In this document: positions 3,691 through 24,500 of the stretch, in pieces
Numbering within the stretch: position 1 is the stretch's first letter
How the letters are laid out: each line of letters starts with the position of its first letter
Source: Vermamoeba vermiformis
Lineage: Eukaryota
Assembly: GCA_045837725.1 (NCBI GenBank)
Contig: JBEWZL010000077.1
Location: forward strand, 372,001 to 436,000
DNA length: 64,000 nt
Reading direction: 5' to 3'
Notes under the pieces: model-generated
Database searches by the model: none
What the model saw: only the letters and a program-made list of their open reading frames with translations
What the model was told of the DNA's origin: nothing
Made by a program: the position numbers and the translations under genes

Positions 3691-6600
3691 ATGGTAAGCA
3701 ACCTCATAGTGCGAATGCTTCACGGAAACATTTATTGTGCACGAGCAAATATATTATAATTGATGAAATCTTTAAAATAGTTCTGAATCAAGCTACTAAA
3801 TTGTTTGTCGTGTCACTGAATATCTTGAACAGCCAAAATTATTGAAAATTGTTATCAATTATTTACTTGACTAGTTTTCGGTGATGCGACTATCTTTTGT
3901 TTTTTGTGCTTTTATTCTGGACGACGAAAAATATTTCGATCCAGTTCAAAATTTCGCGCCCTTTTCGTAATTCTTTAGCCTTTACGCAAATGTTGTTATA
4001 CTGCATTTCCATGATATTAACGTTTCTTTTGTCATAGAGCTCACCTGATAGTAACACACGAGCCTCCCGAGTGAGGAAGAGGAAGATCGACCCCGATAAC
4101 ATTCTCGAAGAAGACGTGTTGTCGGACGTGTCTGACGAGGTGGCGCCTCCTCCTCGCAAAAAACAACGAACTTACAGCAAGAAAGATGCCGCCGGACTGG
4201 GCAAGGGCAAAGGCAAAGGAAAGGGCAAGGGTAAAGGCAAGGGCGCGAACAAAGAGGACAACAACACCAACGAGCTGTCGTCCCCTCCTGCTTTGAGCAA
4301 CAACGACAACTCCACCAGCGAGGTATGTGCTACTAAGCAGTTCCAATATCAGGTGTACTAATTGCGGTGCAGGGACCTGAAACCTCTCCCAATGGTGACA
4401 ATAAGAAGGGTCTCAAGATCACACTGACCATCAAGAAGAGTCCGACAGGTGACGGCAAACAAGTCATCGCTGCCTCTCAGACTTCGCCTACGCCACGAAC
4501 ACCAAGCATTCGAACACGCACTAACGCCAGTGCTGAACCCTCACCTGCCTTCCAAACCCCTCAAACTCCGCACACTCCCCACACCCCTCATACTCCGTAC
4601 ACACCTCGAAGTATGTTCTCACCGGCCTCGCACGATGACAGCATGCTCTTCTCAAGCCCTGGTGAAATCTCGTTGGCCACTCCTGGCAGACCCGCCACGA
4701 GCAACAAGAAGCGTCCATCAGCCTATCCGTTCACGGTTACAGAGCTGTTCCAAACGATGGATTCTTTCTTCAGCACACCTAATCCCTTTGAGGTGGGCAA
4801 GAAAGTTGCACTCACCGTTCAAAAGGACGCGAAGATTTTGAAGCGAGCCACAGAGCTTCAACGTGAAGGTATCCTTACAAGGAAGATTGCCAAAGTACCA
4901 GAAATGCCTCGAAACAAGACGCACTGGGACTACCTTTTGGATGAAATGGTGTGGCTGTCCACTGACTTCCGAGAGGAGCGCAAGTGGAAGATCGCCATGG
5001 CAAAGAAAATTGCTAAGTAAGTTTTGGAAATAGATGATAAATGATCAGTACTAACGATTGATTAGGGCTGTACAAAAGTACCACGATGAAAAGAGGAAAG
5101 AGAGTGACAAGACGACGCGCGAGTCGGAGTTTGGCACTCGTCAAGTTGCCAAGTGGATCTGGCGCGAAGTTCGAAATTCTTACTGGAAGAAGATCGAAGA
5201 ATTAGTTGTATATAAGCATCAATTAGAACTTGATCAGAAGAAAAAGAAAGCTCTCGACAAGCACTTGGACTATCTCGTCGGCCAAACCGAAAAGTTCTCG
5301 ACAATGTTAGCTCAAGACCTCGTCGCGGAGAAACCTGAACAGCCTAAGATTGTTCCTCTTGAGTCTGCTGACAGTCAGCAATCCAACTCGAACGTGCAGC
5401 CTTCTGTAAAGGAAGAAGAGGACGAGTTCGATCCGTCAAAAGTCAAAGAAGAGGAAGACGACGAAGAGACTCTTATTGCCGCTGAAAAGGAAGCCAGCGA
5501 CGTTCCTAAAGGCAAGGAAGAAATCGATTTACTGCAAAAGGAAAGCGAGATTCCTATGGAAGATATCATCGCTGAATACAAAGAGGCCCTGAAGCACGAA
5601 GAAAGTGAAAGGACGGGTGCTGAAAGTGACAGCGAAGAAGAAAGCGGCGGTGAAGAGAGCGCTGGTCTTGAATACCTCATTGGAGAAGATGACGATGAGA
5701 AAGATCAGAATGAAGAAGCTACTCTTGAGTCCGCTTCAGCACTTGCCTCTGCTGCCCAGCCCACTGGCAACACTCTCGACACTACCAAGATCAGAGTCAA
5801 GGTGCCTCCATTAATTAAGGGTAAGGAAGACGTGACGTTCTATTCTTGCTTGTACGAGTACTAACAAATATTTAGGAAATCTGCGCGAATATCAACAAAT
5901 TGGTCTCGATTGGCTCGTGACCATGTACGAAAAGAACCTCAATGGTATTCTTGCAGACGAAATGGGTCTCGGCAAAACAATTCAGACGATCTCCCTGTTG
6001 GCCTATCTTGCCTGCGAGAAAGAGGTTTGGGGTCCGCACTTGATCATCGTGCCGAGTTCCGTGCTTCTGAACTGGGAAATGGAGTTAAAGCGATGGTGCC
6101 CTGGCTTCAAGATTCTTACTTATTTTGGTACTCAGAAGCAACGTAAACTAAAACGTGTTGGTTGGACCAAGCCTAACTCGTTCCACGTCTGCTTGACCTC
6201 GTACAAATTGATCACACAAGATCAACACGTGTTCAAGAGAAAGAAGTGGCATTATATCATTTTGGACGAAGCGCATCATATCAAGAACTTCAAGTCACAG
6301 CTCTGGCAGACTCTCTTGAACTTCAGCTCAAAGCGAAGGTTGCTGCTAACAGGCACACCGCTGCAGAACGATTTGATGGAGTTGTGGTCGCTGATGCACT
6401 TCTTGATGCCTCACGTCTTCCAATCGCACAAAGAGTTCAAAGACTGGTTCTCGAACCCTGTAAATAATATGATCGAAGGTTCAGACAAGGTCAATGGCGA
6501 CGTTATTCAGCGATTGCACGGTGTTCTACGGCCGTTCTTGCTTCGTAGATTGAAGAAAGATGTCGAGAAGCAGTTGCCTCAGAAGCACGAGCACGTCATC

Positions 6601-9600
6601 ATGTGCCGACTATCAAAGCGACAAAGATATCTGTACGAAGAGTTCATGTCGCGTAGCAACACGAAGACGACACTAGCGAGTGGAAACTACTTGGGCATTG
6701 CAAACGTTTTGATGCAACTTCGAAAAGTTTGCAACCATCCTGATCTGTTTGAAACCCGACCAATAGTTTCACCTTTCGATCAACTTCAACGAGTTCGCAT
6801 GTGGGTTCCATCACTTGCAATCAATGCCTTGAATTACAAGCCTCTTGATGACTTGAACTTGGATCATCTTAGCCTGCGGTTAATTGACACCGAGGAAGAT
6901 TCGCAAAACCAATTTATCACAACGACGCAGCTTCAACCTAAGAGGCCAAAGATCGTCGAAGTTGGTGCAAACTTGATCAAGGAGAAGAAAGAAGAATACG
7001 CCAAGGAGCACAAGTTGCCCTCAGTGTTTGACTCTTTCACCAAGGCTCGCGAGGACATTGAAATGCAAGAAATCAACGACCGCTTCAATTGTTTTGCAAC
7101 GGAGAATGAACATCGGTGCCACGAGAGACCTATCTTTGGCGAGGATCTTATCCGACTCGTTGAAGTTAAGTCTACGACAACAAAGACCGTGGAGAATAGC
7201 CAAGATCCGAAGAAGTACTTCGAGTACACTAATGCACTTCGTAATACGATCGTTTCTCCTGAAGAACGATCCGAACGTATGAACGAAGAGCTGACGAAAT
7301 TCCTTTGCTACATTCCATCGGCCAGAGCCCAGTCGATTCAGTTGCATTGCTCTCATCCTGACCCTTCGGAAGCCCTCAAGAAAGAGACCAGCAAACAAAA
7401 CATTATCGAAGAGCTCAACCCTGCCATGGACGTACTCCACACTGCCAATGTGCGCACGCAGATTTACTTCCCCGACAAGCGGTTGATTCAGTTTGACTGC
7501 GGCAAGTTGCAACAGTTGGACATTTTGCTTCGTCGACTCAAGACTGAAGGCCATCGCGCATTGATCTTCACGCAGATGTCAAAGATGTTGGACGTGTTCG
7601 AGATCTTCTTGAACATTCACGGCCACACTTACTTGCGATTGGATGGCACGACTAAGGTCGAGCGAAGACAGTATCTTATGGAGCGATTCAACAATGACCC
7701 CAAGATCTTCTTGTTCATTTTGTCGACTAGAACAGGAGGTGTTGGTGTCAACTTGACAGGCGCGGATACTGTCATCTTCTACGACAGTGACTGGAACCCT
7801 GCTATGGATCAACAGGCCCAGGACAGATGTCACAGAATCGGTCAGACTCGTGAAGTCAACATCTATCGATTGGTCTCTGAGCACACGATTGAAGAGAACA
7901 TTCTTAAGAAGGCACGACAAAAGCGCGAGCTGGATAAGCTTGTCATCAAGCAGGGCAACTTCACAACTGATTTCTTCAAGCAAATCGATTTGAAGGAGCT
8001 CATCTCCGACGCTAAGGCCAGTGCTGGTGTTCAACAAGACGACCAAGACATTCAACAGCTCAATGAAGGCGATCTTGAGAAAGCCTTTACAGCCGCTGAA
8101 GACGAGTCTGATGCCTTGGCATTGAAGACTGCTCAACGCGAACAAGCCGCGCTCGACGTTGGCGAAGAGAACGAGTTTAATGAAACGGCTCCTGCTGCTG
8201 AAGAACAAAAGGAGATCAAATTCGAATTCGAGAACGAGTTGATGCCTGTAGAACGATACGGCATGCGCTTCGTCGAGACTGTCAACCCAGTCATCGATAA
8301 GAATGCACTGGAAGAGGCTCACCGTGAGCTCGAAATGGAAGAAAAGCAGTGGGAAGAAGGCACTAAGAAGTTGATGCAAATGAATCAAGTGAGTGCTCCT
8401 GATAATGATGACGATATTTCTCCGATTAAATACAAACCTCGTGGTCGCAAAGGTCGGCCACGAAAGTCCGATACCAATAATAATAACAATAATAATAAGA
8501 AAAATACTCCTAATAAGGCCAATAATAACGACGAGGATATTTCGAATAGTGGTGACCAATAATAATTTTTAAACCTACCGAAATACTATGAAAAATTTCT
8601 AACCAGCTTATTCTAATTTTGTACAAGTAATTATTTTCGATAGAATAAGCTGGAGAATTTTTTATTTTTAATCGGATCTACATCCATATTTGGTTTGCAA
8701 AAAGAAATAAACCAAAAATTCAACAAAAATCGATTACACGCGATCACCACTATACTACGTATTTACACTATTTAACACATTTTCAATCTCTTGTTGCTAT
8801 CAAATATGGATGTATAATTATTATTAAGTCACCATTTAATTATTCTCGGGCACCAATTCGTTTTTGCGGATCGAGATCTTCCCTTGAAATTCGGACTTTT
8901 CAACGCTTCATCCATGTTTGAGCAGCAAGAGAAAATTCTTTAAAATTTGTGTACTTGTTACGTTTATTGTATGTAAGCGCGTGTCTCAAGCATGGAGCGG
9001 CTGAAAGGTAAAGTTCGGATCAAGGGGTTCAGATCGACTGTAAAAGCAAATTGGTGCAAAATAGATTGCAAAAGTAGTGAGTATATCTAACTTAATAACA
9101 ATAGACGGGTGATAAGGAGCGTCGAGAGGCTTTAGATCTTGATCTCGACAGCAAATCTGAGCGCGATGGTTACAGTTACGAGGAAGAAGAGGAATTGTTC
9201 TATGAAATCACTGACGCGCTGAAAGAAGAAATAGAAAGCAAGATTAAGAGCGGCGAGATCATGTTGTACGCGCCTCCCAATCCCGACAGAGAATTTGATC
9301 TGTACAAGCCACCCTATGATGACTTGGAGTACTTGCCTTTGGTGCTCGGAATATTCGAGAGAGCGGCAGAGGAGCCTAAGAGGTACAGAGAAAATATGTC
9401 ACGATGCTGTTGGTCAGATCTAACGACTTAAACAGGGTGCCTAAGATCGCAATCACGCCTGCTGACAAAAAGAAATCTACTATTGGTGCAACCAAATCTT
9501 CGCAAAAGAAGAAGGGTCGCAAGGCTAATGAAGATCTTGACGAGTTGTGGAACGAACTTGAAGCCAACGCGATGGATCTGGTTGATGACGAGGTGCACGA

Positions 9601-11715
9601 AGAGGAAGAAGTGTTCACAGCCACCAAAAAGAAGCGAAAGAGAGTCATTAACGACGATGACTTCTCCATTGCAGATCCTTCGACACCAACAAATTTGGTA
9701 CGAAGACCTGGCAGACCACGCAAAGCAGTACCAGTCATCACTCTGCCCTCAGCACAGCCCAATGCACCTGAAGTCACGATGACCCTGCCTGGGCCAATCT
9801 CGACGCAAGTTGGTCAATATCCCGTCAGCGATGATCCCAACAAGGAAATTCCGCCCTTCACGGATGAGGAAGATCAGATGATTAAAGACAGCATTGAGAA
9901 GTGGGGCACGAACTGGGACTTGATTACTGACCTCGTCAATCACTACAAGGCACGAGCAAATGTTGGGCCAGGCCCGGCTGTCGTTCGCTTGAGGAGACAC
10001 GTGTTCGAACGATGGCGCGACACCATCTTGCCAACAACTACGCCAAATAACAACAATATTAATAACTCCAATATCAAGAAGAAAAGGTACGATAAGTCTT
10101 TGCTTTAAGGGGCTTGGTAAGGCTCACGAACTAACTTTGTGTTGTCAGGCAAATCTTGGGCACGAAGTATGTTGGCGTCATGGAAATGGTCAAGAAGTTC
10201 CTTGACGAGAAGCGTGGCTTGTCAGGTCGTTATGGCAGTGCAGCGCAGTCTACCAATGAAGCTGTTGAAACGAGCCATGTAACTCAAATCGCCGCACAAT
10301 CTGCTGCGCTGGGTGGCTTGCCCGTTCCTCCTAAGCCCGAGACTGGCGAGGCAGACTGGGACGTGTCTAAGACTTACAATCCACTCATGTTGGTCCGCCG
10401 TCGTTTGTCCAAGCCCGACACGGTGGCTAGTTATCGTGTTCCTGAGCCATCGCCGCTGCGTGAAGATGTGCCCGTGTGGTGCAAAGACATGACTAGCAGC
10501 GGCAAAACACCTGCAGCGAGAACAGCGACAGTCACTGCTACTTCAGCTGCCACACCTGTTGCACCTGTACCTCCAACTGTCGGCACTGCGCCAATCCCAG
10601 CCGCGGTATCAATGCTTCCCAGTGGTCCGACCCTCCCAACAGCTTCTCTTGCTGGTCCACCGACAATACCTCCCGGCCCAGTGCCTGCACTTCCCCCGCA
10701 GTCTCCTCAGGGCCCTCTGTCACCCGCGGCCGTGCCACCGCATGTACCTGCTGGCCTTGGCTTGCCCACTCGACCAGCACACGTCCCCCATGTGCCCACT
10801 GCATCGCCCATTCCTGTTCCTCAAACGGGACATGTGTCACTCCGCCCCACCACACCTGATGTGCCTATCAACCCGAGTGAAATTGAAGTGAGTCCCGGCG
10901 CTGGTGTGGGACGAGGCATGCGCATTCACACGTCACCTATATCAGTGCCAGCACCTGGGTACAACCCAACGGGCGTGCCTGTTGCTACTGGTACACCGCC
11001 AACAGGAGGACCTCCAAAAGCACCACGTGTAGTACTGCGCATTCCAAACATTAATCGCAGCACCCCGCACATGCCTGCAGGACAACCCACTGCTACTGGA
11101 GTACCGAATGTTGGCCCTCCTCCTGGCGTTGCGCGCCCTAACCCAACAACTCCTGGTGGTCACGTGCCCATTATGGTCCCTAAAGTACCTCAGGTTGGCA
11201 TACCAATGGTGCCCACTAATCCTACTGGTCCTCCTGGTGTACGTCCGATAGTAGTGCCTGGCACAGCTGGCCTCCCTGGTGCCATTCGTTCGCCGCCCAG
11301 TGGTCCTGTACCTCCCACTAGGGCAGTGCCACCTCATCCATTGCCCCGCGGACCTCTCGCCTTCCAGCCAAAGGTGCGTGTCTTGAGTCCTGGTGGTGCA
11401 CCACCAACTGCCGGTGTTCCAACGGGACCTCTTGCCGTGCCTAAAGGACCAGGTGTAGCAGCCCCTACTGGCAATCTCGTAGTGCGATTGAACCCTGGCG
11501 CACAACCAGCTGCTGCTCAGCCCAAAGCTTCACTTCTCGGCACGCTTGTCAACTACTGCATGAAGAAGTTCCCGACGCAAGTGATGCAAGTGCGTGAGAT
11601 TGCCATCAAGAAGGAGTTGCCTGAATTTCAGCGCGTTGAAATGCTGCGGAATATGATCCAACAGCTTGAACCCAATGCTCCCATCTTGACCATGTTCACG
11701 CAAGCGAAAAAATAA
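3691..11715 (+). CDS. SWR1: SWR1/Domino/PIE1-type SNF2 chromatin remodeller (HSA, split ATPase, AT-hook, SANT/Myb-like domain, Pro-rich tail); alternative short form ends at 8562
   Basis: HSA: KTHWDYLLDEMVWLSTDFREERKWK. ATPase motifs: NGILADEMGLGKT, ILDEAH, LLLTGTPLQN, FDCGKLQ, DSDWNPAMDQQAQDRCHRIGQ. SANT-like: FTDEEDQMIKDSIEKWGTNWDLI. The first coding exon is ATG only (3691-3693|gtaagc), spliced in frame to 4038. Confidence 0.92.
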
Positions 11716-11846: not shown

Positions 11847-12190
11847 GGTTGCATTTAACCTGCGGGCACTCAACCAATCATATCTATCTGCAACAGCGCC
11901 AATGTCTACGTGACTGGCAACACAGTGACGTCACCAGGACAGTTCATCGCGAATGACAGAGCTGCACTGGCACGAGTTCTTGCTACATATCAAGCTGCCG
12001 CTGTCAAGAACTTTGCCGCGCAAAGTGTGACATCGGATATCGAGGAACCTGCCGTTCCAAATGATGTCTTCCGCCAGTATTGGAGGATGCCCCTACAACC
12101 GTTCAAACTGGCGAGTTTGTTAGTGGAGGCATTGGTCTGCCTTTAGCGGCGTATTGTAGTGTGATTGCCTTCGCCACTATCATTTTCTAA
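11847..12190 (+). pseudogene. Disrupted remnant of a Cys-rich surface protein with a GPI-signal-like hydrophobic C-terminus
   Basis: The frame starting at 11960 reads SCTGTSSCYISSCRCQELCRAKCDIGYRGTCRSK*CLPPVLEDAPTTVQTGEFVSGGIGLPLAAYCSVIAFATIIF*. In-frame TGA at 11954 and 12062; no clear start. Confidence 0.5.
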
Positions 12191-12674
12191 AGAGACAGCA
12201 TTGGAATTTAGTATTAGGGATATGAATAGTTTAATTGAATAAACGCTAGAGATGTCTGTTGCTCGAGACTGAAAAAAATTAAAATTTGCATTCGCCTAAA
12301 TTTATTTACAAATTAATTAATTATCGATACGAATCAAATCCAACCAAGAGATGCAAGAAGCTTCTTCGAAGGAGGTTCGTCATACAGGCCACTGAGAGCC
12401 AAAACGTCGTCTGTTGAGTCGTGGTAATCGAGAGTAACCACGAGAGGTGTTTTATTAGTTCTAGCATGTGCTTGCTGCACGGGTGTGCTGGTAGTGTCGA
12501 TGGAAGCGGGCATATTTGTCTACTGTGTTCAACTGTTTAAGCTTTAAAGAAAATAAAACCAGCAAACTGAAAATGGATTTGCAGCTGGACCAAGAAATTT
12601 GCCAGAATATTACTGCTAATCCTTTTATCGCTGCAATCATAACATTTATGCATAATGTAATAAAGCCTATTTTA

Positions 12675-15148
12675 TTACTTGTCTTGCTTATCATACACCA
12701 TGCAAACATCGTTGCCGAGCACTTTGCACTCGTTCAATTTCCAAAACTTAGCATCCTTGATCGTCGTCGCTAATGTGACGCTAGGCCAGCTAATGCCGCT
12801 GCCACCAATCAAACACGCACCGACATATAAGACCACTCTATCAACTAAATTCTTTTCTAAGAACTGCCCGAGCACATTTGGTCCGCCTTCTATTGAAGTA
12901 AAGGTACGAATGTCAGTCAATTTTCCTTATTTGGAAATAATACTTGAGACTCACCAATTAGCACATGCATGATACCTCGTCGGCCTAAGTCTAACAACAG
13001 CTCTTCCAAGTCAATCTTGCCTTCGCTTCGTGAGTTTTTACTGGTCCAAATGTCAACTCCGGCATTGCGCCATACTTCAACTGACTTTGGATCTGCTGCC
13101 TCAGTCGTGGCAATGAGCTTATGATGGGTACGTATTAGTGCTCGTGCGATAAGATAATAAGAGCACTTACTGTCTTCGCCTCGCCGTCAGGACCGCCTTG
13201 AGCAAGCAGCGGTGTCGTTGGATCATTCACACTGCCTCGTCCGTCAATCACAATTCTGAGTGGTTGTTTGACCTCACGCTGTTCGTTCGTGTTCGTGGCG
13301 CTTGTTTGCGGACTTCGTACAGTCAAGCGGGGTCTGTCTTTGATCGCTGTTCCTGCTCCAACTAGCACAGCCCCTGCGTGTCCAACTGTTCCTCGCCACG
13401 TTGAATGCGCGTGTGTTCGTGCATTCTGTATATAAAGACTATTATAACCGAGAAGAAACAACACGAACAGAGTTCGCCGGAAGTAAAAAATTTGTATCGT
13501 GCGTGGGGTCATGTTTGACGTACCTCACCAGTGATCCATTGCGAAGTATAGTCCTCGCAGCCTACTTTTCCATCGATGCTCGAGGCGATCTTTGCAACTA
13601 CTAACGGCTTGCCCGTTCGGCGGTGATGTAAGTATGGACGAAGTGAGTTAAATGCTTGTTCATGGCAGATCCCGACAACAACTTCAATGCCGTGGGATTT
13701 TAAGTATTCGATGCCCTTGTTTCCTACATTTTTATCTTCATCTACTAGCGCAATAACCACTCGTTTGACTCCACATTCGACCAATAGATGATCACAGGCT
13801 GAAAATTAATAATTAGTAATCGGCTTTATATTTAAATCAATGAATAATTAGCACAATAAACTTATTTCATAATTATTTATAAATTATTTCGATTAAATAA
13901 TCACTTACGAGGTGTTCTTTTGCCTTCAAACGGATGACACGGCTCCAAAGTTGAATAAACAATACTATTCTTTAATAAATGTTCATTCCCTGATTCTTTA
14001 GCATCGCGGACTGCATTAGCTTCTGCGTGTCCTTCTCCTGCAAGTCAAATAATCAATAAACAAATCTAAAATCAAATTATTGAAGCTTCAATCATGAATT
14101 AGCCACAATAGCTTACCAGCTTTAGCATGGAAACCACGTCCAATAATATCGCCGTGCTCAGTAACGATTACACAACCAACCCACGGATTTGGCGCGCTTG
14201 TTAATCTTCCTCGTTCTCCGAGTTCAATAGCTTTCAGCATGAACTCTTCATCTTTTAATTTCAACTCCCAATCGGTAAGTTCAAATAATGAGCGCTTAAC
14301 TGCAAATTAAAATATTAGAGCCGTTACTAATATTAATTATTGAATTATCTTACCTTCTGCTGCTGGAGCTTGTAATAATTTGAGTGCTTGATCAAATTCA
14401 ATATTAATAATATCTCCGATTTTTCTGTATTGCAAATTGGTATGCGAGAGAGTGTGTGGGATCAACGAGACACGGATCTGCTGTTCTTTGATCTCTGCGA
14501 CTGTCAAGCTAACGCCGTCAAGGCATATAGAACCTTTATAAATAACGTGTTTGCTGATATCTTCTTTGGAAAGTGCCGACGACAAGTCGATCCACAAGCA
14601 TTGCGAGCCATCCGGATGTGGCAGAACACTTGCAACGCGACCAGTACCGTCTACGTGTCCAGAAGTAGTATGACCTCCGAGATGATCACCGACTTTAAGC
14701 GATAATTCTAAATTGACGACTTTTTCTTCCTCGGTGGACCTGTTTGAGCAACGAAGTACGTTAGATCGATTTGTCGCGCGATTGCATTTTCAAATGATTA
14801 AAATGAGCTAATTATGATATTATAGGACCATCCCGCTGCTATAGGACGCTTCAGTTATTTTTTTGAATCGCGTACCAATATTTCAATTTCAGATCCGGAG
14901 CGGTCTGAAGCGACTTACCACAACGAGCTATTGAAATTCGTTTTGTTCCTCGTTTCCTCCATAGCAAAGAAAGTAGCAGTATCGCTTCCGTTAGTTTCTT
15001 CTAAGAGCGTCAAGCAAACTCCGTTCACCGCGATCGAATCTCCTTTTTTGCAATGGCGCCAGAACTCTGGTGAGCATCGTACGTGCAATATAAAATTTTT
15101 ATCGTATTTGGCATAGCCTATAGCTTGAATTAATCCTGTGAACACCAT
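12675..15148 (-). CDS. ribE-ribD: Riboflavin synthase (alpha type) fused to bifunctional RibD deaminase/reductase
   Basis: Synthase: MVFTGLIQAIG, GDSIAVNGVCLT, VNLE, GGH..SGHVDG, KGSICLDGVSLTV, LIPHT, GDIINIEFD. After a 54-nt phase-1 intron (14353-14300), deaminase: FMLKAIELG, APNPWVGCVIV, HAEANA, STLEPC..KRTPPC. Reductase: KIASSIDGK, SQWITG, VLVGAGT..DRPRLTVR, IEGG. Confidence 0.92.
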
Positions 15149-15382
15149 GTCTGCTCGTGCACTAATTCACTTTCTCAGATGTGGTCTGAAAACTCTTTAG
15201 TAATAAAACTAACGGCACCGAATGTGGAAGAATCTCGGAACCGAACTTTCGGATTTAAACGGAAAGGGGGAATGGTGAACTTACCACCCGAAGTTTCCGC
15301 AAACTTCCCGAAGCTTCAGCCATGTGCCTTCGGGTAACGAAAAAACAGATTTTTTCACGGCCTACTTTTTGAAGATTATTCG
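15149..15382. promoter_or_regulatory. Bidirectional promoter region between the two rib fusion genes, rich in CCGAA/TTCGG inverted repeats
   Basis: 234 bp between divergent ATGs. Inverted repeats at 15241-15252, 15260-15299 and 15307-15334. Confidence 0.55.
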
Positions 15383-17726
15383 ATGAACACAATGCAAGCC
15401 GAGCAAGTCAAGTTCTCTACTATAGAAGAAGCCGTCGAGGCCTTCAAGAAGGGCCAGTTCGTTATAGTTATGGACGATGAGGATCGCGAAAACGAAGGCG
15501 ATCTCATCCTCGCGGCGGAGCTCGTGACCGCTGAAAAAGTCGCATTTGCTTTGCGCCATACGAGCGGTATATTATGCGCTCCTATGACCTATTCCCGCGC
15601 TAATGAATTGCGATTGCCAATCATGGTCACGGAGAATACGGATCCGAACAAAACCGCTTTCACCATCTCGTGCGACGCGAATGAAACTTCGACGGGCGTA
15701 TCAGCTCAAGATAGATACTTGACCTTTACTGCCTTGGCTGACCCGAGCAAAGGTTCCGCAGATTTCCGCCGGCCCGGGCATGTGTTTCCGTTGGTTGCAA
15801 AACCAGATGGAGTTTTGCAACGCAGAGGCCACACTGAAGCTGCCGTTGATTTGTGCAAACTTGCTGAGCTGACTCCAGTTGGATTTATCGGCGAGATGAT
15901 GAAGCAAGATGGTAAGTATTTAGATTCATGAAATTTGAGATCCGCAGACCAGATCAAACCAGAAATTTAACTAATTCGAAATTATAATATAATGACTCTT
16001 GTATTGATGTATTATATGTTTCGCGTATTCACGTCTTTTTGAAAAATCACCTGAACTCACATTTTGGCTGGCAGGTACAATGATGCGCCGCGACGATTGC
16101 TTTGCCTTTGCCAAAGAATATAATTATCCTATTATCACTATTGACGCGCTAGTGGAGTATAGAAAGAATCAAGCTGACCAAGCTAAGGAACTCTCCGAAT
16201 CCCAAAAGATCGTCGAACTCATCTCGCACTGCGATTTGCCTATCGAAAGGAACAACAAGAAATTAGGAACATGGCATTTATATTGCTACTTCTCTCACCG
16301 CGATGGCAGACATCACGTGGCCTTGGTCAAAGGTCGCGGGATCGAGGAAGCGAAATCTGAAGTACCTTTGGTCCGAGTGCACTCTGAATGCTTTACTGGC
16401 GATGTATTAGGCTCATTGACTTGTGACTGCGGAGAACAACTGACTTTGGCGCTCGAAAAGATTGACGAGGCTCAGTCAGGCATTCTCATCTACCACATGG
16501 GTCATGAAGGTACGTTAATCCTCGACTTCAAAACTCTTTTGATAGCATTGAATATTATTTTTATCATTTAAGCGCGTCGCTACTATTTATTATTTTCCGA
16601 ACCTAAAATTGGATGCACTTCTTTACCAGTAGTAGATCGTAGCTAAATTTCAGTATCGAATTATAGGTCGAGGCATTGGCTTGGGCAACAAGATTCGCGC
16701 GTACAACTTGCAACAGACTAAGCAAGTCGATACATTCGAGGCTAACAAAATGCTTGGCTTCCCTGCTGATCTGCGAACATACGAGACTGCTGAAGCTATT
16801 TTGGATGACTTGGGCGTTAAGAAGGTTAGATTGCTCACTAATAATCAAGAAAAAGTGAACTCTCTCAAGAAATACGTGCAAGAAGTAGTGCCGTTACAAA
16901 CCCCGCCAAACACCCATAACGCCAAGTACTTGAAGGCCAAGCACGATCATCAAGCTCAATTGAAGGCTACTATTCAGACAGTAGTCAAGGATTTAATCGA
17001 GAATAATAATTTGTTGGGCTCAACAGCAGTTATTGGCACATCCGCGAAACCGATCGAATCCACTTCGGAGTCGACTCCGAAACCTCAGGCTTCAGAACAC
17101 CACAAATCGGTGCCACTGTACAGCAGCGTTCCTCTGCCTCGAGAAGCAGCTCATTTGCGAATTGGCCTCGTCAAGACAATGTGGAACGAAACGCTGGTAC
17201 ACGACCTAACAACGCAGATCAAAGACGAGTTGAAGAAGCTTTCAGTCCAAGACGAGAACATCATTGAAGTTACAGTACCGGGTTCTTTCGAACTGCCATA
17301 TGCTGCGAAGCAACTGGCTCATCCTGGTAAGTCCAAGCAGTCGTGCAGGCGGATCAACAGCGGATCTAACCAATTTTTTCAGATGAGAAACTCGATGCAG
17401 TGATATGCTGCGGAGTGCTTATTAAAGGAGAGACCTTCCATTTTGAAATGATCAGCACGAGTGTTGCAAACGGCTTAATGAACATTCAGATCGAGACTGG
17501 TGTTCCAATGATCAACGGAGTATTGAACTGCATGACTATTGATCAAGCTGAGGCTCGATGCGGTTACAAGAGCGACTTGCCGTCGTCTTTGGCTTGCACA
17601 GCTGTTTATATGGCCAATTTGAAGAGTAGCAAGTTCACACGGACACCTTTCTCATCTGTGGCCCGATTCAACCACAACGAAGCAGCAAATAACGTCTTAA
17701 CTGTTCCTCAACCCTGCGGAAAATAA
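15383..17726 (+). CDS. ribBA-ribH: Triple fusion: DHBP synthase (RibB) - GTP cyclohydrolase II (RibA) - lumazine synthase (RibH)
   Basis: Rib[43 protein letters not shown]. Rib[42 protein letters not shown]. Rib[42 protein letters not shown]. Exons 15383-15911, 16075-16509, 16667-17326, 17383-17726. Confidence 0.95.
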
Positions 17727-18042
17727 CTTAAAAGCCTATAATAATAATGTTTTGATCAACTAATGTAAATAGCGTTAAAAAGCCTTTAATCCGAACTCTT
17801 TATTTAACTGAGTCATACCGTAGTAGCTCTACATGGTGGCTTGCATGAAAACACACGCTTCATAGAAAAGAAAAGCGCTTACCAAAAAAGGAAAGTTGTT
17901 CTTTCGTTACGTTAAAAAACAAATCGCAGAAAATTTGGTTTCGGCCAAAAATGGAGAAAAACAAAATTTGTTGTATTGTTGGAGTTAAAAACAGTTTACT
18001 AACCTTACTTCAACCCAAAGCAACAACACCGACATTTCAATC

Positions 18043-18252
18043 ATGAACTTTTGGAACGCAGTTGTCAGCGTAGTGACCGGCAGCACCCCGACCATCACTC
18101 CCAATATTCCTGCAACCTCGACTACTGGCTACACTAACAACAATGGTACCGACAACTACATTGCCTACAATAACACGCCTTTGGGTGATACGTTCTACCA
18201 AAATGTAGGCAAGACTGTGCCAGTTGAGACGTTCTACGAGATGACCGAATAA
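18043..18252 (+). CDS. Small intronless Thr/Asn-rich protein (69 aa), unknown function
   Basis: ATG in a C/A-rich leader like other genes here, coding-like GC content, AATAAA about 90 nt downstream. Confidence 0.5.
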   Translation: MNFWNAVVSVVTGSTPTITPNIPATSTTGYTNNNGTDNYIAYNNTPLGDTFYQNVGKTVPVETFYEMTE

Positions 18253-18536
18253 CCGTCGGTTAGTCGAAAGATTTCCAAAGAATGCTATACTAAGCGAACT
18301 GAGACTATTGTCATTTGGATATCCGTAGATATTGATTATTAAATAAAGTCCGGCTTTTCGGAACCAGATCTAATTTATTTTAATCTACTTAATTTAATCT
18401 TCGTGTTAAGGGTCGCCTAGCTACGTATCGATATCATACTTAGGTACTACCCTTCACGTGGTGCGCATACAGCAAGACTTTTGCTTATCCGTAAACGGTG
18501 GATGGAAATTCCATGCTTTTGGTGCAAAGTGGACTT

Positions 18537-21500
18537 TTAAATGTTGAATTCTCTTTCATACATTGTCTCCAATCGTTGGATAATTGCCTTGAGCGGCAAT
18601 CGTTTCTCAGGTTCAGGGTGCCAGCAATCCGTAATCAAATCGGCGTAATCTGTGGGACAACCTGCTGGAATTGCTTCTCGATTGCCGTCAAGGACGAACT
18701 TTGACACGTCCCACACGTGTTTGAAAGCGGTATATGGCTCTTTTTGCGTAATGATAACCCAAAGCAAGACACCGTAGCTGTAAATATCGGCTTCTTTGTT
18801 ATACCGCTTGCTTAGTAAGATCTCTGGGGCCATGTAAATAGGGGTGCCAACACCTTTGGTGAAAGTTTCGAGCTTGTCTTCCATCCTTCGCGCGCTTCCA
18901 AAATCGCTCAAGCGGATCATGTTTGGCGCATTGACATCCGTAGACTCGATGAGGACGTTGTCTGCTTTAATGTCGCGATGAAGTACGTTGTTTTGGTGCA
19001 AGTAGTCAATGGCTTTAGCGATCTCTAACGCGATCCGCAGTTTGGTTCCATACGGAATTTTCTTAGTCATTAACTTCTCTAAACTTCCGTTGGGCATGAA
19101 TTCGGTTATTATTGCCATTTTCCCAGGCAATTTAGATGCGCCAATGAGTGACACAATTCCTGGATTTTTCAGCTCGGACAATAATTGGATCTCGCGTTCA
19201 AATTCTTCTACGGTCTTCTCGTCAACGATATCTTGATATTTCAGCATCTTCACCGCCACATCTTGACCTTTGTATTGACCTCTATATACGACTCCAAATC
19301 CTCCTTCGCCAATCGGTGACTGATCCATTTGAATTTCCTCGATGTCAATCCACACTGAGGGGTTTGTGGTGATATTGCACGGAATGTAGAAGTGTCTGTG
19401 AAGCTCGGGCAGTTCCACACCGATCAGGGCCGTGACGCTGGTTGCCACATTCATTTTCAGCTTAATCATGACACTCTCAACGCCAGACGATTCGTCATGA
19501 GAGCTCAGTCTGCTGGGCCTCCAATTGTAATCCAATGTAACCGCATCAGGTTGGACTATCAACGAGCATTTTGGCGTCTTGGGAGCGTGAAAAATGACTG
19601 TTAAATTCTTGTTGACGAGAGGCACGTGCATGTCAGAAGCTTTTTTCGCGACAAGTTTTTTGCTTTGTCTAATCGTGGCCAGAGCCAGCTGCAATCCTCC
19701 GTGCAGATTTAAGTCAATAGTATCGGTATACTCTTCGTTGACATCGAAGCTTGTTGTTCCTCCGAAAGTTAAGGTTGTTTTTGAGAAGGAAACAGGCAAG
19801 TTGGCGATGTTGGAGCTAAGTTTAGATCCTTCAGGCGGAGTCCAGACAGGCAACAACGGGTATTGGACGTCATCGACGCCGTACGTGGCCTTATGGAACG
19901 TGATTTGTCGGCGCTGGTTGATTTTTCTTCGAACGTAAACCACAGTAACCACAATGGCCACAACGGCGCTGGAACAAACGAGCACTACAACCAAAGAGAT
20001 GTCTCGGTCTGACAGTCTGACGTTTAATGGCACTTCCTTGCTGTACACCGTTTTCGCTGGATTCGATACTTGCACTTTAATTCTATCGCCATTCATGGAG
20101 CGAGTAGCAGTGAATATCAAAACTCTGCCAGTCGCCTGTGTAAATGCGTTAAGAGTGAGTCTCCGATTTTGTCCCAAACCCCCAATTTTGTCCCAAACGA
20201 TTTTGGACTAAAATTTAACAATAATTTATTTTAATACTTATTTAATGGAGTGATTTCAATACGAATAGATAAATAATAAGTGAATACTTGAATTACAGTT
20301 GATTTAATCGTGCAATTCGCCTTCATCACTGGCCAGATCGGATCTTTCTTCGCTCAGATCAGATCCGCATTCAGCAGCATGCTCATCATGAATATCTCGT
20401 TTTTGACACTTCTTGCATACTTGATAGCTATTACATGAGGTGCAGACCCAAAATTTGTGCTTCTTGGTATATATACGACGGCAAGGTGAGCACGTCCTAC
20501 TAATCACATCACTCTGTTTGTCAAGTTTGCGTCGCTTGACGAGCTCTTGTCGCTCTTCTTTCTCCTCTTCTCTCTTTCTCTTCTTGTCCTCTCTTTCTTT
20601 CTTCGCAAGTTCTTTAGCCTCCTTCTCTTTCAGTGCTTTTTCCTCCTTCTCACGGGCATAGATCACCAACTGCTGGCCAGTCACCAATTTATTCCGCTCA
20701 TTGGCACGTACTCGCTTGATAGGAGTCTTGGTTTGATTAGGTATCAAGGCCTCCTTAAGTATCAGTGCCATAGCTTTAACTTCTTCATCTTCACTGGTGT
20801 GCAGTTGAGGTTTTGTGTCGAACATGTACATGTTCTGAAATTTCTTGCTGATAAGTGCACTATCGAATGGCCAAATGCCTGTATGTCGAAATCCTGCCTT
20901 AATGACCTCTTTATCAAATATATTGGACTTCTCCTCCGTGATAATGTCTTCAATAACAGAGTGCAGGGTCTCTCCAGTGAGGAGCCGTCGCATTCTTTCA
21001 AGGTCTCTCTTGACACGCATCTTGCGTTTGAACGAGCCAAAAATCACGTCGTCAAGAGGTTGAAGCAAATGAGTTGTATGTGCTGGTAGGTACAGGGGCT
21101 GTATATCAGAATCTAATAGCAAGTTGATGCTGGTCAACTCCAGGTGGGTGGAGTGGCGGTCAAGAAGTAAAAGAGCTGGTTGTCCTTGCTTGAACGCTGA
21201 AAGTCGCTCCACGAGTCGCGCTATTATTTGCTTCCACAACTCATTTGTAATAAAGCCATTAGCTGTTGTGGCATAATAAGTTGGTATAGTGCTGCGAGTA
21301 TATCTCAGCTCTGTAGTGACGGGAATCGAATTCTTCTTTTCGTTGCCATTTTGTGACATGTCCTTGTAGATGAGCACTATCATCCAAACACGACCAGATG
21401 CTGCAACGAATGGAAGTATAGTGCGTAGATGACTCTTGGGAGTACTCAATCTACCCTGCTTTTTCGAATTTGCACTCGTTAGAATCTTCGAACTTTCTCC

Positions 21501-24500
21501 GTCAGTAAATTTACAGGGAGATTCGTCAGCGTTGATGATGAAGTCGTCCGTGTAACTTTTCTCTTCTAGTAGCCTCTTGTATTCTTTCACAAATGACTCA
21601 ATAATATCAATAGTGACAGAATTGACACGTCCCATGTCGAGGTCTTTACCAAACGCGTGAGAGATGTGATCTGAATTGCGGATCAGAAAATTGCTAAACC
21701 AGTGATCGCCTCGCCAGTCTTCAGGGAGCTCAAATATCTTACGTACAAAACTAATGAATACACTTCTCGACAGAGCTATTCCGCTTGCTGAAAAAGCTAA
21801 AATGATGCTGCATAGTCTTTTTTCTTGCTGATCGGTGAGCATCTGATTTCCATGTTTCTTCTCTTTATTCTTTTGAGCCCGCTGGTAGGCTTTGCGAAGT
21901 GTTTCGAATTTATTGGGACTATTCCGCGTCAAATCGCGAATAATTTCGCTAATTGTCTCGCCGTTTTCTGAAATCCGTTGATTGATCTCATGAATTTCGT
22001 TTTCATACTTCGCCATTACAGGTCAGAAAAATTATAAATAAAATCAATACTATTGAACAACAAGCTGTCGTGTTCGTGTGCGAAGCAACTTATTGAATGC
22101 CGTTGGTAAAATAATTTGCGAAATTACGCAAAAAAATCGGTTGGGACAAAATCAGGGGTTTGGGACAAAATCGGCGACTCACTCTAAAATATGGCGAAAA
22201 AATCTGAAAAAAAAATCTTACGCCCTCGATCTCTTGGTCATTTCTGTACCACTGGTAGCTCAGACGGTACTCAGGTGTGGCTATTGCTGAGAAAGTGACG
22301 TTGTTACCCTCTTGTACGTCTGCGACTGGCTGATTGAAAATCTCGTTCTGCAGCACAGGGCCGCCGAGCAGTTCTAATTGAGTCACGTGTTTTTCAAGAG
22401 GTATTGAGCCTCGATTGTTGTGTATAAAAATGTCGTATGAGCCACGGTGCCTCTCTGTGACGTTCGGAATAAGCAATGTCGGGGATGTTTCTCCTGTTTT
22501 AGCGTGTCAAAAGTGTCAACGTGAGACACGGCCAAAAACAACTTACCCGGCAAAGGCGTGCGGTTTACAGCCCATGTGAACTTTAGATTGCTTAGTGCTT
22601 GACTAGACAAGTCGACAGAGAGTGTTACAGGATGGCCCACAAATGCGTAGGCGACGGGATAGTTGGGCGAGTTGACTTCCAAAGGCACGACCGTGACCGA
22701 GAAGTCTATTGGCCCCGCAGTGCCAGCCAAGTTGTGCATGTAGAGTTGGTAAGGTCCAGCGTGCTGATCAGTCACACTTTTAATCTGGAATCGACTCGTA
22801 TTTACCGCCACCACAATGCCGTTGTGTTTCCACTCGTACAACACGCCCCAGCTAGCAGACACCGCATCGATTTGCAGCTCGGCACCCTCTAACACCTCGT
22901 AGCTGGAGCTCAGCGGCACCACTAGCTCGGGAAGTGTGACAACAACGATGGTCGTTGAGACTGTGGCTGATCCAGAGGGATTGCTTGCAGTTACACGAAG
23001 GATTGTGCCGTTGTACGCGGTGGTGACTTGTGGCAAAATCCAGAAAGTATCTGAAGTGTTGTCGAGTACGACAGTATCGTTCAGGACCCAAGTGTACGTG
23101 ATGCCGCCTGTTGCTGGCCGATCGAACAGATTGGACCTGCCAACCACGATAGGAGTTATGTCGCGCGGGGTACGATCGAACACTGGTTTTGGCTGAACTA
23201 CGATGAAACCTGGCGCACTTGTGAGTTGTCCTGCGCGATTTGAAACTGTGACAAAAGCAACAATCTCAGCTCCCGTGTGGATGACATTAGGCACCACGAT
23301 AGTAGAGCTTGTTTCGGACTCGATGGTTGTGAATTTAAAAGAAGGTATTAATCTCCATTGGAACTCGAGCGATCTACCCTCCGCTGTGACACTCAGTTCG
23401 GCAGTCTGATTGAGAAATATTCGGACAGTTTCGGGTTGTTGAGTGATACTTGGTTCTGGCTCCATCATCAGCGCGATGTTAACTGCGGTCGAAAATCCGT
23501 TAACGTTGAACGCCTCGCCTCTTATGACAAGCCCATCGTCTGCTTCAGTTAAGGGCCACAAGGTGAGCTGGGACGAGTTCTGGTAAGGTATGAGAGTTGA
23601 GCCTTTGTACCACCGATATTGCGCGCCTTCGCCAACGGTTTCCATGAATAGAATGGGTGTTTCATCAAGCCAAAAGGAAACAGGAGATTCAGAGTAGTCG
23701 ATAATTTGCGGCGCGGGCTCGGGATGGATCCAGATCTCAGGACCAAGTGTTGCGCCTGAAGGGTTGCTGGCTTCCAATTGATACAGCGTTGAAACAATAC
23801 TCGGGTCCAACTGCACGTCTAACGTAGTGGTATTTCGCTGGCCTATAGTCTCGTTGTTCCTGAGCCATCGAATAGCGAGCTCTTCGCCGAACATTTGATT
23901 GGTCAAATCCAACGTGATTGTATCATTTAGCAGCAAATTGAAGTCCCGCCTCGTGTAGTCGATGAACCAAGGCTGTGGGTTGAATGCGACTTGCATTTGG
24001 GACTCTGCAAACCCATTGGGATTTGAGACCCGAACCACAACTTCCGTCGAGTCAGCGATCGTAGATCCCGCTTGAAGTTCTATTGTTGTTAATCCTGTCA
24101 AGTCTTCTTGTTTGATTCCGTTGACGAACCATTCGTATTGAAGACGCTGACCAACTGCCGTGGCAGAAAAAAACACCGTTCGCCCCGGAAAAACTGCAGC
24201 TGGATCGACTAGTGTAGACAAAATTGTTGGACTTGGATAAGCTACAAGGACAGTAGGCGCCGTCTTCAATGAAAGGCCATCGGTGCTGATGCTAACGGTA
24301 TACTTGGCACCATCGTCTTCAAGCGTAAAGTTGGCGATGTCAATGCTTGGCGAAGTTTCTCCGGGAAGTGGAACGCCGTTTCTGTGCCATTGATAAAATA
24401 CTTCAAAGTTGTCTTTTTCTGATTATTAAATATTAGCAAAATCAATATTGATATGAATCATGCTTACTCAAAACTTTAACGGCAAGTCGGATCGAGTCTC

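Follow-up and report, generated by a model that had tools for sequence, protein, structure and literature searches.

Riboflavin synthesis provides a textbook case of enzyme co-assembly, in which a lumazine synthase (LS) capsid encloses riboflavin synthase, and this solution is bacterial. Could a eukaryote bring these enzymes together by joining them covalently? The question is raised by a stretch of 64,000 nucleotides (nt) of the Vermamoeba vermiformis genome (hereafter the window; assembly GCA_045837725.1, contig JBEWZL010000077.1, positions 372,001 to 436,000 of the forward strand, numbered here from its first letter), in which a first-pass annotation, made from the sequence alone, had noticed an LS fused behind RibBA and had proposed that the fusion could form a self-assembling multi-enzyme scaffold. 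We found that a single spliced nuclear gene encodes a 655-amino-acid (aa) protein with the order RibB-RibA-RibH, i.e., 3,4-dihydroxy-2-butanone 4-phosphate (DHBP) synthase, GTP cyclohydrolase II (GCHII) and LS, and that a second gene, transcribed divergently from it, encodes riboflavin synthase fused to RibD (RibE-RibD). The scaffold proposal is partly supported by our analysis: the fusion stands, its core is likely oligomeric and functional coupling with the partner is supported indirectly, and a capsid enclosing riboflavin synthase is unlikely.

All three introns of the fusion gene (163, 157, and 56 nt) are of the GT..AG type, and the span to which the first-pass annotation had drawn attention (16667-17726) corresponds to exon 3, the 56-nt intron and exon 4 (17383-17726, including the stop codon TAA; Table 1). 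As that annotation had claimed, the C-terminus of RibA, a linker and the N-terminus of RibH lie in one exon: the open frame 16669-17325 of exon 3 runs uninterrupted over 219 aa and holds matches to both Pfam GTP_cyclohydro2 and DMRL_synthase, and the RibA-to-RibH junction is therefore independent of splice prediction. The spliced model is mirrored by a public protein, P0001 (677 aa, from a 2132-nt contig), which is identical to it at 598 of 652 aligned residues (92%) and reproduces all three splice junctions (alignment to the spliced model and tblastn). The extra N-terminal residues of P0001 match the 5' flank of the gene in the window, and the first ATG of the window is not conserved in P0001; comparison of the two sequences suggests that the true start may be the Met three codons further in. 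Whichever Met holds, nothing precedes the RibB domain, i.e., the protein carries no N-terminal presequence.

The three enzyme domains are readily recognized by Pfam. DHBP_synthase (PF00926) and GTP_cyclohydro2 (PF00925) both score above their cut-offs, in the N-to-C order of RibBA: exon 1 matches the former at 244.1 bits (profile positions 1-162 of 191, the profile tail falling in exon 2), and the latter is split between exon 2 (86.7 bits, profile 10-86) and exon 3 (83.7 bits, profile 89-161 of 165). Likewise, DMRL_synthase (PF00885, curated cut-off 26.7 bits) is divided between exon 3 (53.6 bits, profile 2-57 of 139) and exon 4 (80.7 bits, profile 59-138), and is recovered in P0001 as one match of 141.7 bits across profile 2-138. 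LS is known to rely on a catalytic His, an aromatic residue that stacks on the substrate and a phosphate-binding Arg supplied across the subunit interface, and the hallmarks of RibBA include the zinc-binding Cys triad, RENEGD and GHTE. Aligned with solved LS, the window sequence places the W of its TMWN opposite that of ARWN (4kq6, 2jfb, and 1c41), and the H of its GETFHFE and the R of its AEAR opposite the corresponding H and R (1c41, 2jfb, and 5im4), which bears out the earlier statement that the active-site-type residues are kept. In an alignment of 20 full-length fused proteins (A1), RENEGD, GHTE, the three RibA Cys, GHEGRGIG and the LS His are invariant, and the Trp and Arg of LS are kept in 90% or more of them; the window protein itself has the Cys triad, RENEGD, GHTE, GHEGRGIG, and the W, H and R of LS. 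The zinc-binding residues of RIBA are essential (PMC3509567; papers given by PMC number are represented here and below by parts of their text). With the hallmark residues of all three enzymes present, the fusion is, judged from its sequence, catalytically intact. No solved structure found by structure search spans the three fused domains; the best one, the RibBA structure 4i14, matches P0001 residues 29-435 at 312 bits, and bacterial RibBA proteins are approximately 50% identical (profile search with A1).

Between HNAKYLK and HLRIG lies a spacer of 72 aa, in agreement with the roughly 70 aa first reported; the Ser/Thr/Pro richness also claimed for it holds for its distal 44 aa only (43% S+T+P), the whole spacer reaching 29% versus 15.8% in the remaining protein. 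An AlphaFold2 model of P0001 built from A1 (mean predicted local distance difference test score, pLDDT, 80.3) shows three domains mostly with pLDDT >90, a helix at 426-454 that continues from RibA and covers the proximal ~30 aa of the spacer, and pLDDT <50 at spacer residues 445-491 and at tail residues 643-677. Since the predicted template modelling score (pTM) of this model is 0.43, the domains do not seem to hold fixed positions towards each other. Among relatives, 21 to 131 aa separate the RibA domain from LS, and the spacer sequence is not conserved in A1. By its variability and in the model, the spacer is thus a flexible tether and not a domain.

Among solved structures, the LS domain is best matched by 4kq6 (108 bits), 1c41 (107), and 2jfb (105), with 1ejb in the same 95-108 range; these and 1kyv we take to be fungal LS (Candida, Magnaporthe, Saccharomyces, Schizosaccharomyces). 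High scores are also obtained by 6vfj and 5im4, designed cage components derived from the fungal LS group, versus 80 bits for 1hqk, 74.5 for 1c2y, and 73.9 for 1rvv. Fungal LS form pentamers or decamers and B. subtilis-type LS 60-mers (PMC7369331; PMC13376624). We predicted four copies of the LS part (P0001 residues 481-677) together, from the sequence with no alignment, and obtained a score of 0.83 versus 0.00 for the best of three controls; the mark used is attained by 21 of 30 proteins whose solved form is a pair of one chain and by none of 23 whose solved form is a single chain, counts that hold only roughly for four copies, and, as similar complexes have been solved, the pass may reflect memory. 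Contacts are shared between runs at 74% or more, the partner pLDDT is at least 74, and in the predicted interface residues 575-578 of one subunit, the region of the catalytic His, contact 603-609 and 613 of its neighbor, which is the usual active-site interface of LS; the C-terminal tail takes no part in it. For the self-association of the LS part, "the model supports binding; it does not show it". Most likely, the protein would form an oligomeric LS core with flexibly tethered RibBA arms.

A second putatively disordered segment (the tail modeled with pLDDT <50 above) follows the LS domain and ends in a QPC motif. Tails of at least 10 aa are present in 25 of 70 fused proteins with a complete LS domain, and 14 of these 25 end in [QPA]PCxx(x), an ending found in several branches of the tree. 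It occurs in none of the 45 short-tailed fused proteins, in none of the 12 six-domain forms described below (partial forms included), which stop 1-3 residues after LS, and in none of the 418 other proteins compared. The absence of the motif where RibE-RibD is covalently attached suggests that the tail might be a putative docking peptide for the RibE-RibD partner. In 15 motif tails (P0149 added to the 14), the Cys stands three residues from the end in 6, including the CGK of the window, and four from the end in 9. A prenylation (CaaX) signal was considered and rejected, as the Cys position misfits and the following residues are mostly not aliphatic.

The partner gene lies head to head with the fusion gene, their start codons 234 bp apart. 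Its exon pieces match, in order, Lum_binding twice (the two barrels), dCMP_cyt_deam_1 and RibD_C in Pfam; the riboflavin synthase domain occupies aa 1 to ~205 and is followed by ~400 aa of RibD up to aa 611, with splice sites predicted under the guidance of P0041 and not of a near-identical relative. By these domain assignments, a single locus of 5 kb carries, apart from the phosphatase, all enzyme domains of riboflavin synthesis. The intergenic region (15149-15382) contains six copies of CCGAA/TTCGG versus 0.37 expected and is the densest 234-bp stretch of the window, a statistic inflated by the fact that the motif was picked post hoc, after the repeats had been seen. It also contains the 8-nt inverted repeat ACCCGAAG/CTTCGGGT, and motif cluster and repeat may constitute a shared regulatory element. 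No Rfam family, including the FMN riboswitch, was matched in 12000-18500 at E-values up to 1.

How widespread is this architecture? A search with exon 3 for longer relatives gave 1215 matches at E up to 0.001 among 2751 candidates; in the 120 of them that were listed, GCHII (PF00925) and LS (PF00885) occur together in five, P0001 being the best, and the other 115 carry no LS domain. With HMMER, run exhaustively on 1.84 billion cluster representatives, exon 3 obtained 4857 matches at E up to 0.001, 15 of them at E up to 1e-30. Of the 148 new proteins listed, the first 110 were scanned with Pfam: 53 contain both GTP_cyclohydro2 and DMRL_synthase, and seven contain all six domains, in the order RibE-RibD-RibB-RibA-RibH. 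At least eight such six-domain proteins are now found (P0041, P0151, P0158, P0160, P0191, P0206, P0208, and P0213). A profile search with A1 yielded 27 fused proteins among the 120 listed, including a EukProt entry, and GCHII plus LS was detected with local hidden Markov models in 85 of the 503 proteins compared. The divergent gene pair, the eight six-domain chains and the 1101-aa Indivirus protein A0A1V0SE20 lend indirect support to a functional coupling of the fusion protein with its partner, as far as such genomic associations can indicate it.

Some relatives show further rearrangements. In P0131 (1147 aa), three to four LS domains stand in tandem; P0157 is a RibBA-RibD and P0170 a RibD-RibA fusion. 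In P0159, GCHII-LS is followed by a PAP2 phosphatase-family membrane domain, and P0181 combines a glycosyltransferase, GCHII and a HAD hydrolase; one or the other might supply the phosphatase step missing from the pathway. Two fused records, P0282/P0284, are filed under animal names: the bdelloid rotifer Rotaria sordida (878 aa, with an extra NHL/SGL part) and the locust Schistocerca gregaria (619 aa, named "RibBA-like" in RefSeq). To our knowledge, animals are not expected to make riboflavin, and these records therefore suggest horizontal transfer or contamination.

We also looked at where the fusion might come from. A scan of bacterial genomes returned at least 589 matching loci, the best 80 of which were examined for fused open reading frames (ORFs) and for gene order. 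None of these best 80 has RibA and RibH in one ORF; in 49, ribH is a separate downstream ORF on the same strand next to ribBA, and 29 show the gene order ribD/ribE/ribBA/ribH. Since ribBA directly precedes ribH in those loci, the fusion is colinear with the bacterial order, and the usual ribD-ribE order is inverted in the partner and in the six-domain forms, in which RibE precedes RibD. For a phylogeny of RibBA, 98 sequences were used, with FastTree first and afterwards with IQ-TREE: 53 fused proteins in which RibB and RibA are both near-complete (the 85 include 32 more, which were partial and excluded), a random draw of 25 from the 211 eligible RibBA-only proteins, and every fourth of the 80 bacterial loci. 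In the unrooted IQ-TREE tree, whose bootstrap had not fully settled, a branch with support of 100/100 (ultrafast bootstrap, UFBoot/Shimodaira-Hasegawa-like approximate likelihood-ratio test, SH-aLRT) separates 49 fused proteins, including that of the window, and P0161 (458 aa, possibly truncated) from the 48 remaining sequences, made up of the 20 from bacterial loci, 24 of RibBA-only type and the fused proteins P0179, P0289, P0290, and P0292. The position of these four on the bacterial side means that zero fused loci in 80 leaves room for bacterial fusions, and the tree fits one old origin for most fused forms together with a few separate bacterial fusions. The six-domain forms grouped apart from the group of the window in the first FastTree tree. 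Going by the sequences compared here, the three-domain fusion is an old and widespread architecture.

The account that we find best overall, and hold to be probable, is that of a trifunctional gene whose product forms an LS oligomer with tethered RibBA arms and is coupled to the RibE-RibD partner. The LS domain would assemble through its usual inter-subunit interface, which forms the active site, into at least a pentamer, and each LS subunit would carry one RibBA module on a flexible tether of ~45 aa, fixing the RibB, RibA and RibH activities at 1:1:1. With a tether of this length, DHBP would be released from RibB beside the LS sites that consume it. The intermediates would alternate between the two chains (from RibA to RibD, to the phosphatase, to LS, to riboflavin synthase and back to LS), and such an alternation between two polypeptides favors a physical association with the partner. 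As bacterial RibAB is a dimer (PMC8414670), the five arms of a pentamer could not all pair internally, and we infer that unpaired arms might cross-link pentamers into larger assemblies. In B. subtilis, where the proteins are unfused, the confined motion of RibAB depends partly on RibH, suggesting a transient interaction (PMC8414670).

Several observations weigh against this account. The junctions are supported by P0001, a close relative and not an identical sequence, and the gene model is a prediction; the spacer, being predicted as disordered, may be cleaved. The self-association of LS comes from a four-copy, alignment-free prediction in a family with many solved pentamers and may only reflect likeness to them. 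Alignments to fungal LS stop at residues 61-62, just after AEAR, and those to the capsid formers 1hqk and 1rvv run on colinearly into the last helix, covering 81-82 residues with a length difference of one residue. In bipartite RIBA proteins, one of the activities may be lost silently (Arabidopsis RIBA2 and RIBA3; PMC3509567), so that sequence conservation is no proof of activity. Finally, Rosetta-stone fusions and a presumed shared promoter speak for functional and not for physical linkage.

Other explanations were considered. If the spacer were cleaved in vivo, the gene would encode a polyprotein that gives separate RibBA and LS, and the fusion would serve only co-expression and 1:1 stoichiometry. 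The predicted disorder of the spacer would suit this, as would its wide variation in length and sequence, as in a dispensable connector; yet we saw no protease site or conserved cleavage motif in the spacers of the 20 aligned fused proteins, and the fusion is kept in dozens of divergent clusters, including some with short gaps of 21-45 aa, and is extended by further covalent links in the six-domain forms. That the fusion is kept with short gaps and gains covalent links suggests that tethering itself is selected, and we regard cleavage as unlikely. Alternatively, one of the three domains might be catalytically dead and serve as a scaffold or regulator, as in Arabidopsis RIBA2/RIBA3. This has the precedent of silent activity loss in a fused RIBA (PMC3509567), and the tandem LS domains of P0131 show that LS can be duplicated in the family, but all hallmark motifs are present, the three Pfam matches lie far above their cut-offs and no other rib genes were seen within the 64-kb window, so a degenerate domain is very improbable. 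A chance close to nil is left for an assembly or annotation error, or a recent insertion of giant-virus or bacterial DNA: the Orpheovirus and Indivirus homologs at 38-40% identity and the bacterial ribBA-ribH adjacency given above would be in line with foreign DNA, but the GC content (0.42-0.43) matches the flanks, the best 80 bacterial loci hold no fused ORF, the junction lies inside one open exon, both genes have GT-AG introns (3 and 7), and an independent, 92%-identical sequence shows the same structure.

What kind of assembly could the intact protein form? By analogy with B. subtilis, the first-pass annotation had evoked the LS shell of 60 subunits that encloses riboflavin synthase; here, 60 RibBA modules would stand outside and the riboflavin synthase partner inside. 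The longer alignment of the post-AEAR region to 1hqk and 1rvv would agree with such a capsid, and both the N- and the C-terminus of LS face outwards and accept fusions (PMC7369331). Overall similarity, however, is highest to the pentameric/decameric fungal LS (105-108 versus 74-80 bits). Bacterial encapsulation uses a free C-terminal peptide of riboflavin synthase at pentamer-pentamer interfaces, and all 60 predicted encapsulating pairs of the 166 organisms in a 2026 survey are bacterial (PMC13376624, parts of the paper); the partner's riboflavin synthase has no such free localization peptide, as it runs on into RibD. A trimer of the 611-aa chain would, by our estimate, also have about three times the mass of a riboflavin synthase trimer. 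Because the LS is nearest to the fungal group, the synthase C-terminus is occupied by RibD, and the predicted encapsulating organisms are all bacterial, a B. subtilis-style enclosure seems very unlikely, and the analogy is not supported. Another possibility is a non-covalent "riboflavin synthasome", in which the tail would dock RibE-RibD, mirroring the localization peptide of bacterial riboflavin synthase, and in which the symmetries of pentameric LS, dimeric RibBA arms, and the trimeric riboflavin synthase and dimeric RibD of the partner would force closed, cage-like or decameric assemblies or a condensate. We consider this rather unlikely; if true, the designed cages of pentamer-dimer and pentamer-trimer type would have a counterpart in nature.

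Table 1. Features of the riboflavin-synthesis locus, in window coordinates
Feature	Position	Strand	Description and evidence
RibB-RibA-RibH gene	15383-17726	+	Four exons, 1968-nt in-frame coding sequence, 655 aa, stop TAA
Exon 1	15383..15911	+	Start codon and most of DHBP synthase (RibB); Pfam DHBP_synthase; donor GTAAGT
Exon 2	16075..16509	+	End of RibB, inter-domain stretch, N-terminal half of RibA with Cys-x10-Cys-x-Cys triad; Pfam
Exon 3	16667..17326	+	C-terminal half of RibA, spacer, N-terminal part of RibH; Pfam; tblastn of P0001 spans 16666-17385
Spacer, aa 412-483	16936..17151	+	Composition; AlphaFold2 model of P0001
Intron 3	17327..17382	+	56 nt, GTAAGT..CAG, within RibH domain; P0001 continuous over junction
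Exon 4, first part	17383..17630	+	C-terminal part of RibH, catalytic His, Arg of AEAR; Pfam; alignment to solved LS
C-terminal tail	17631..17726	+	31 aa ending VPQPCGK, motif 17706-17723, then stop; tail-motif tally; pLDDT
Partner gene	12675..15148	-	8 exons, 611 aa, riboflavin synthase fused to RibD; gene model, Pfam, tblastn of P0041
Intergenic region	15149..15382	.	234 bp, presumed shared promoter; start codons 15148 (-) and 15383 (+)

The surroundings of the locus are those of eukaryotic nuclear DNA, with a GC content of ~0.37-0.54 and short GT-AG introns. The window also contains genes for a SWR1-like SNF2 ATPase, a transmembrane kinase, Ig-domain proteins and a pogo-type DDE transposase, and no tRNA was found in it. 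The SWR1/PIE1/p400-like gene (4337-10108, +) has HSA, SNF2, Helicase_C and Myb/SANT domains; the closest named relatives of its ORF are plant sequences, at 50-57% identity, and the best local matches, of 76-78% over about a third of the query, are transcriptome entries. It is followed by an open frame of 526 codons (10135-11715, +) that is extremely rich in Pro, Gly, Ala and Val and lies at a GC peak of 0.54 versus ~0.43 around it; the opposite strand is also open over long stretches, as such a composition predicts. Approximately 800 bp downstream of the rib fusion gene and convergent with it, an intronless ORF of 546 aa (18537-20177, -) carries a PK_Tyr_Ser-Thr kinase domain (196.6 bits), preceded by a hydrophobic stretch that, by eye, resembles a single membrane span. 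Adjoining this kinase gene is an intact 570-aa ORF (20304-22016, -) in which a DDE_1 transposase domain (pogo/Tigger-type) is combined with a C-terminus rich in Cys and in Lys/Glu. Over ~8 kb between 28000 and 36000, the AT skew is strongly negative (-0.25 to -0.37), and several long frames are open there on the - strand; of the frames scanned, three gave only sub-threshold matches to Pfam families of coiled-coil type (ATG16, TPR_MLP1_2, Filament, etc.) and three gave none, and the region may hold one gene for a very large coiled-coil protein. An ORF piece at 50301-51254 (-) with AMP-binding_C, PP-binding and NAD_binding_4 has the architecture of an alpha-aminoadipate (Lys2-like) or carboxylate reductase.

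Taken as a whole, the locus represents a different, covalent solution to the co-assembly of riboflavin enzymes, in a eukaryote, with two divergently transcribed chains whose relatives merge all six domains. If assembled as proposed above, the protein would be a natural test bed for substrate channelling from DHBP synthase to LS, a case from nature, of interest for cage engineering, in which an LS core displays a large enzyme, and, with its partner, a simple two-gene cassette for the whole pathway. In the literature, a single sentence of the 2018 Orpheovirus genome paper, which calls ORPV_666 tri-functional (RibA+RibB+RibH) and mentions homologs in Indivirus, B. subtilis and Acanthamoeba castellanii (PMC5786535), is all that we found on such a protein, and no biochemical or structural study of a RibB-RibA-RibH fusion was found, although subscription journals and supplements may hold more. 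Words starting with "eukaryot", as well as "RibBA" and "GTP cyclohydrolase", are absent from the main text of the 2026 survey, and "fusion" or "fused" is used there only for green fluorescent protein constructs (PMC13376624). The architecture is thus known from databases and one paper, which limits the value of a new case, and is biochemically unstudied as far as we found; the gene of the window is a further member.

Among known systems, the giant-virus proteins are similar in architecture. In a Foldseek search with the P0001 model, whose viral matches were taken from BFVD, the top viral match was A0A2I2L4Y7 of Orpheovirus IHUMI-LCC2 (ORPV_666, 572 aa, 40% identity over 609 columns, E 4.8e-70), followed by A0A1V0SE20 of Indivirus ILV1 (1101 aa, 38% over 615 columns). 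Like the window protein, Orpheovirus ORPV_666 joins RibB, RibA and RibH in one chain and is homologous to it along the whole length; the Indivirus protein is ~450 aa longer and is named "Deoxycytidylate deaminase". The viral genes are intronless, whereas that of the window is spliced, cellular, and accompanied by a divergent RibE-RibD partner and a QPC tail. The six-domain proteins correspond to the two genes of the window placed end to end with their internal domain orders kept, but form one chain of 1024-1262 aa and have no QPC tail. The first ~420 aa of the window protein are a canonical RibBA, as in bacteria and in plant RIBA1, whose chains end after RibA and whose ribH is a separate gene; plant RIBA is moreover imported into chloroplasts (PMC3509567, in part), while the window protein has no N-terminal extension before RibB. 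With fungal LS, the LS of the window shares the Trp, instead of Phe, at the substrate-stacking position as well as the His and Arg, but fungal LS are stand-alone proteins of ~160-200 aa, whereas the LS of the window has an N-terminal extension of 480 aa and a tail of 31 aa, and has no counterpart of a stretch that follows the ARxG motif specifically in fungal LS and at which the alignments break off. The heavy riboflavin synthase of B. subtilis and Aquifex, a 60-mer of LS around a riboflavin synthase trimer, also brings together two enzymes of consecutive steps, the same two that occur in this locus (PMC13376624; PMC8414670, parts of both papers); there, riboflavin synthase and LS are associated non-covalently, whereas in V. 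vermiformis the covalent link is between RibBA and LS, and the overall similarity of the LS does not point to a capsid.

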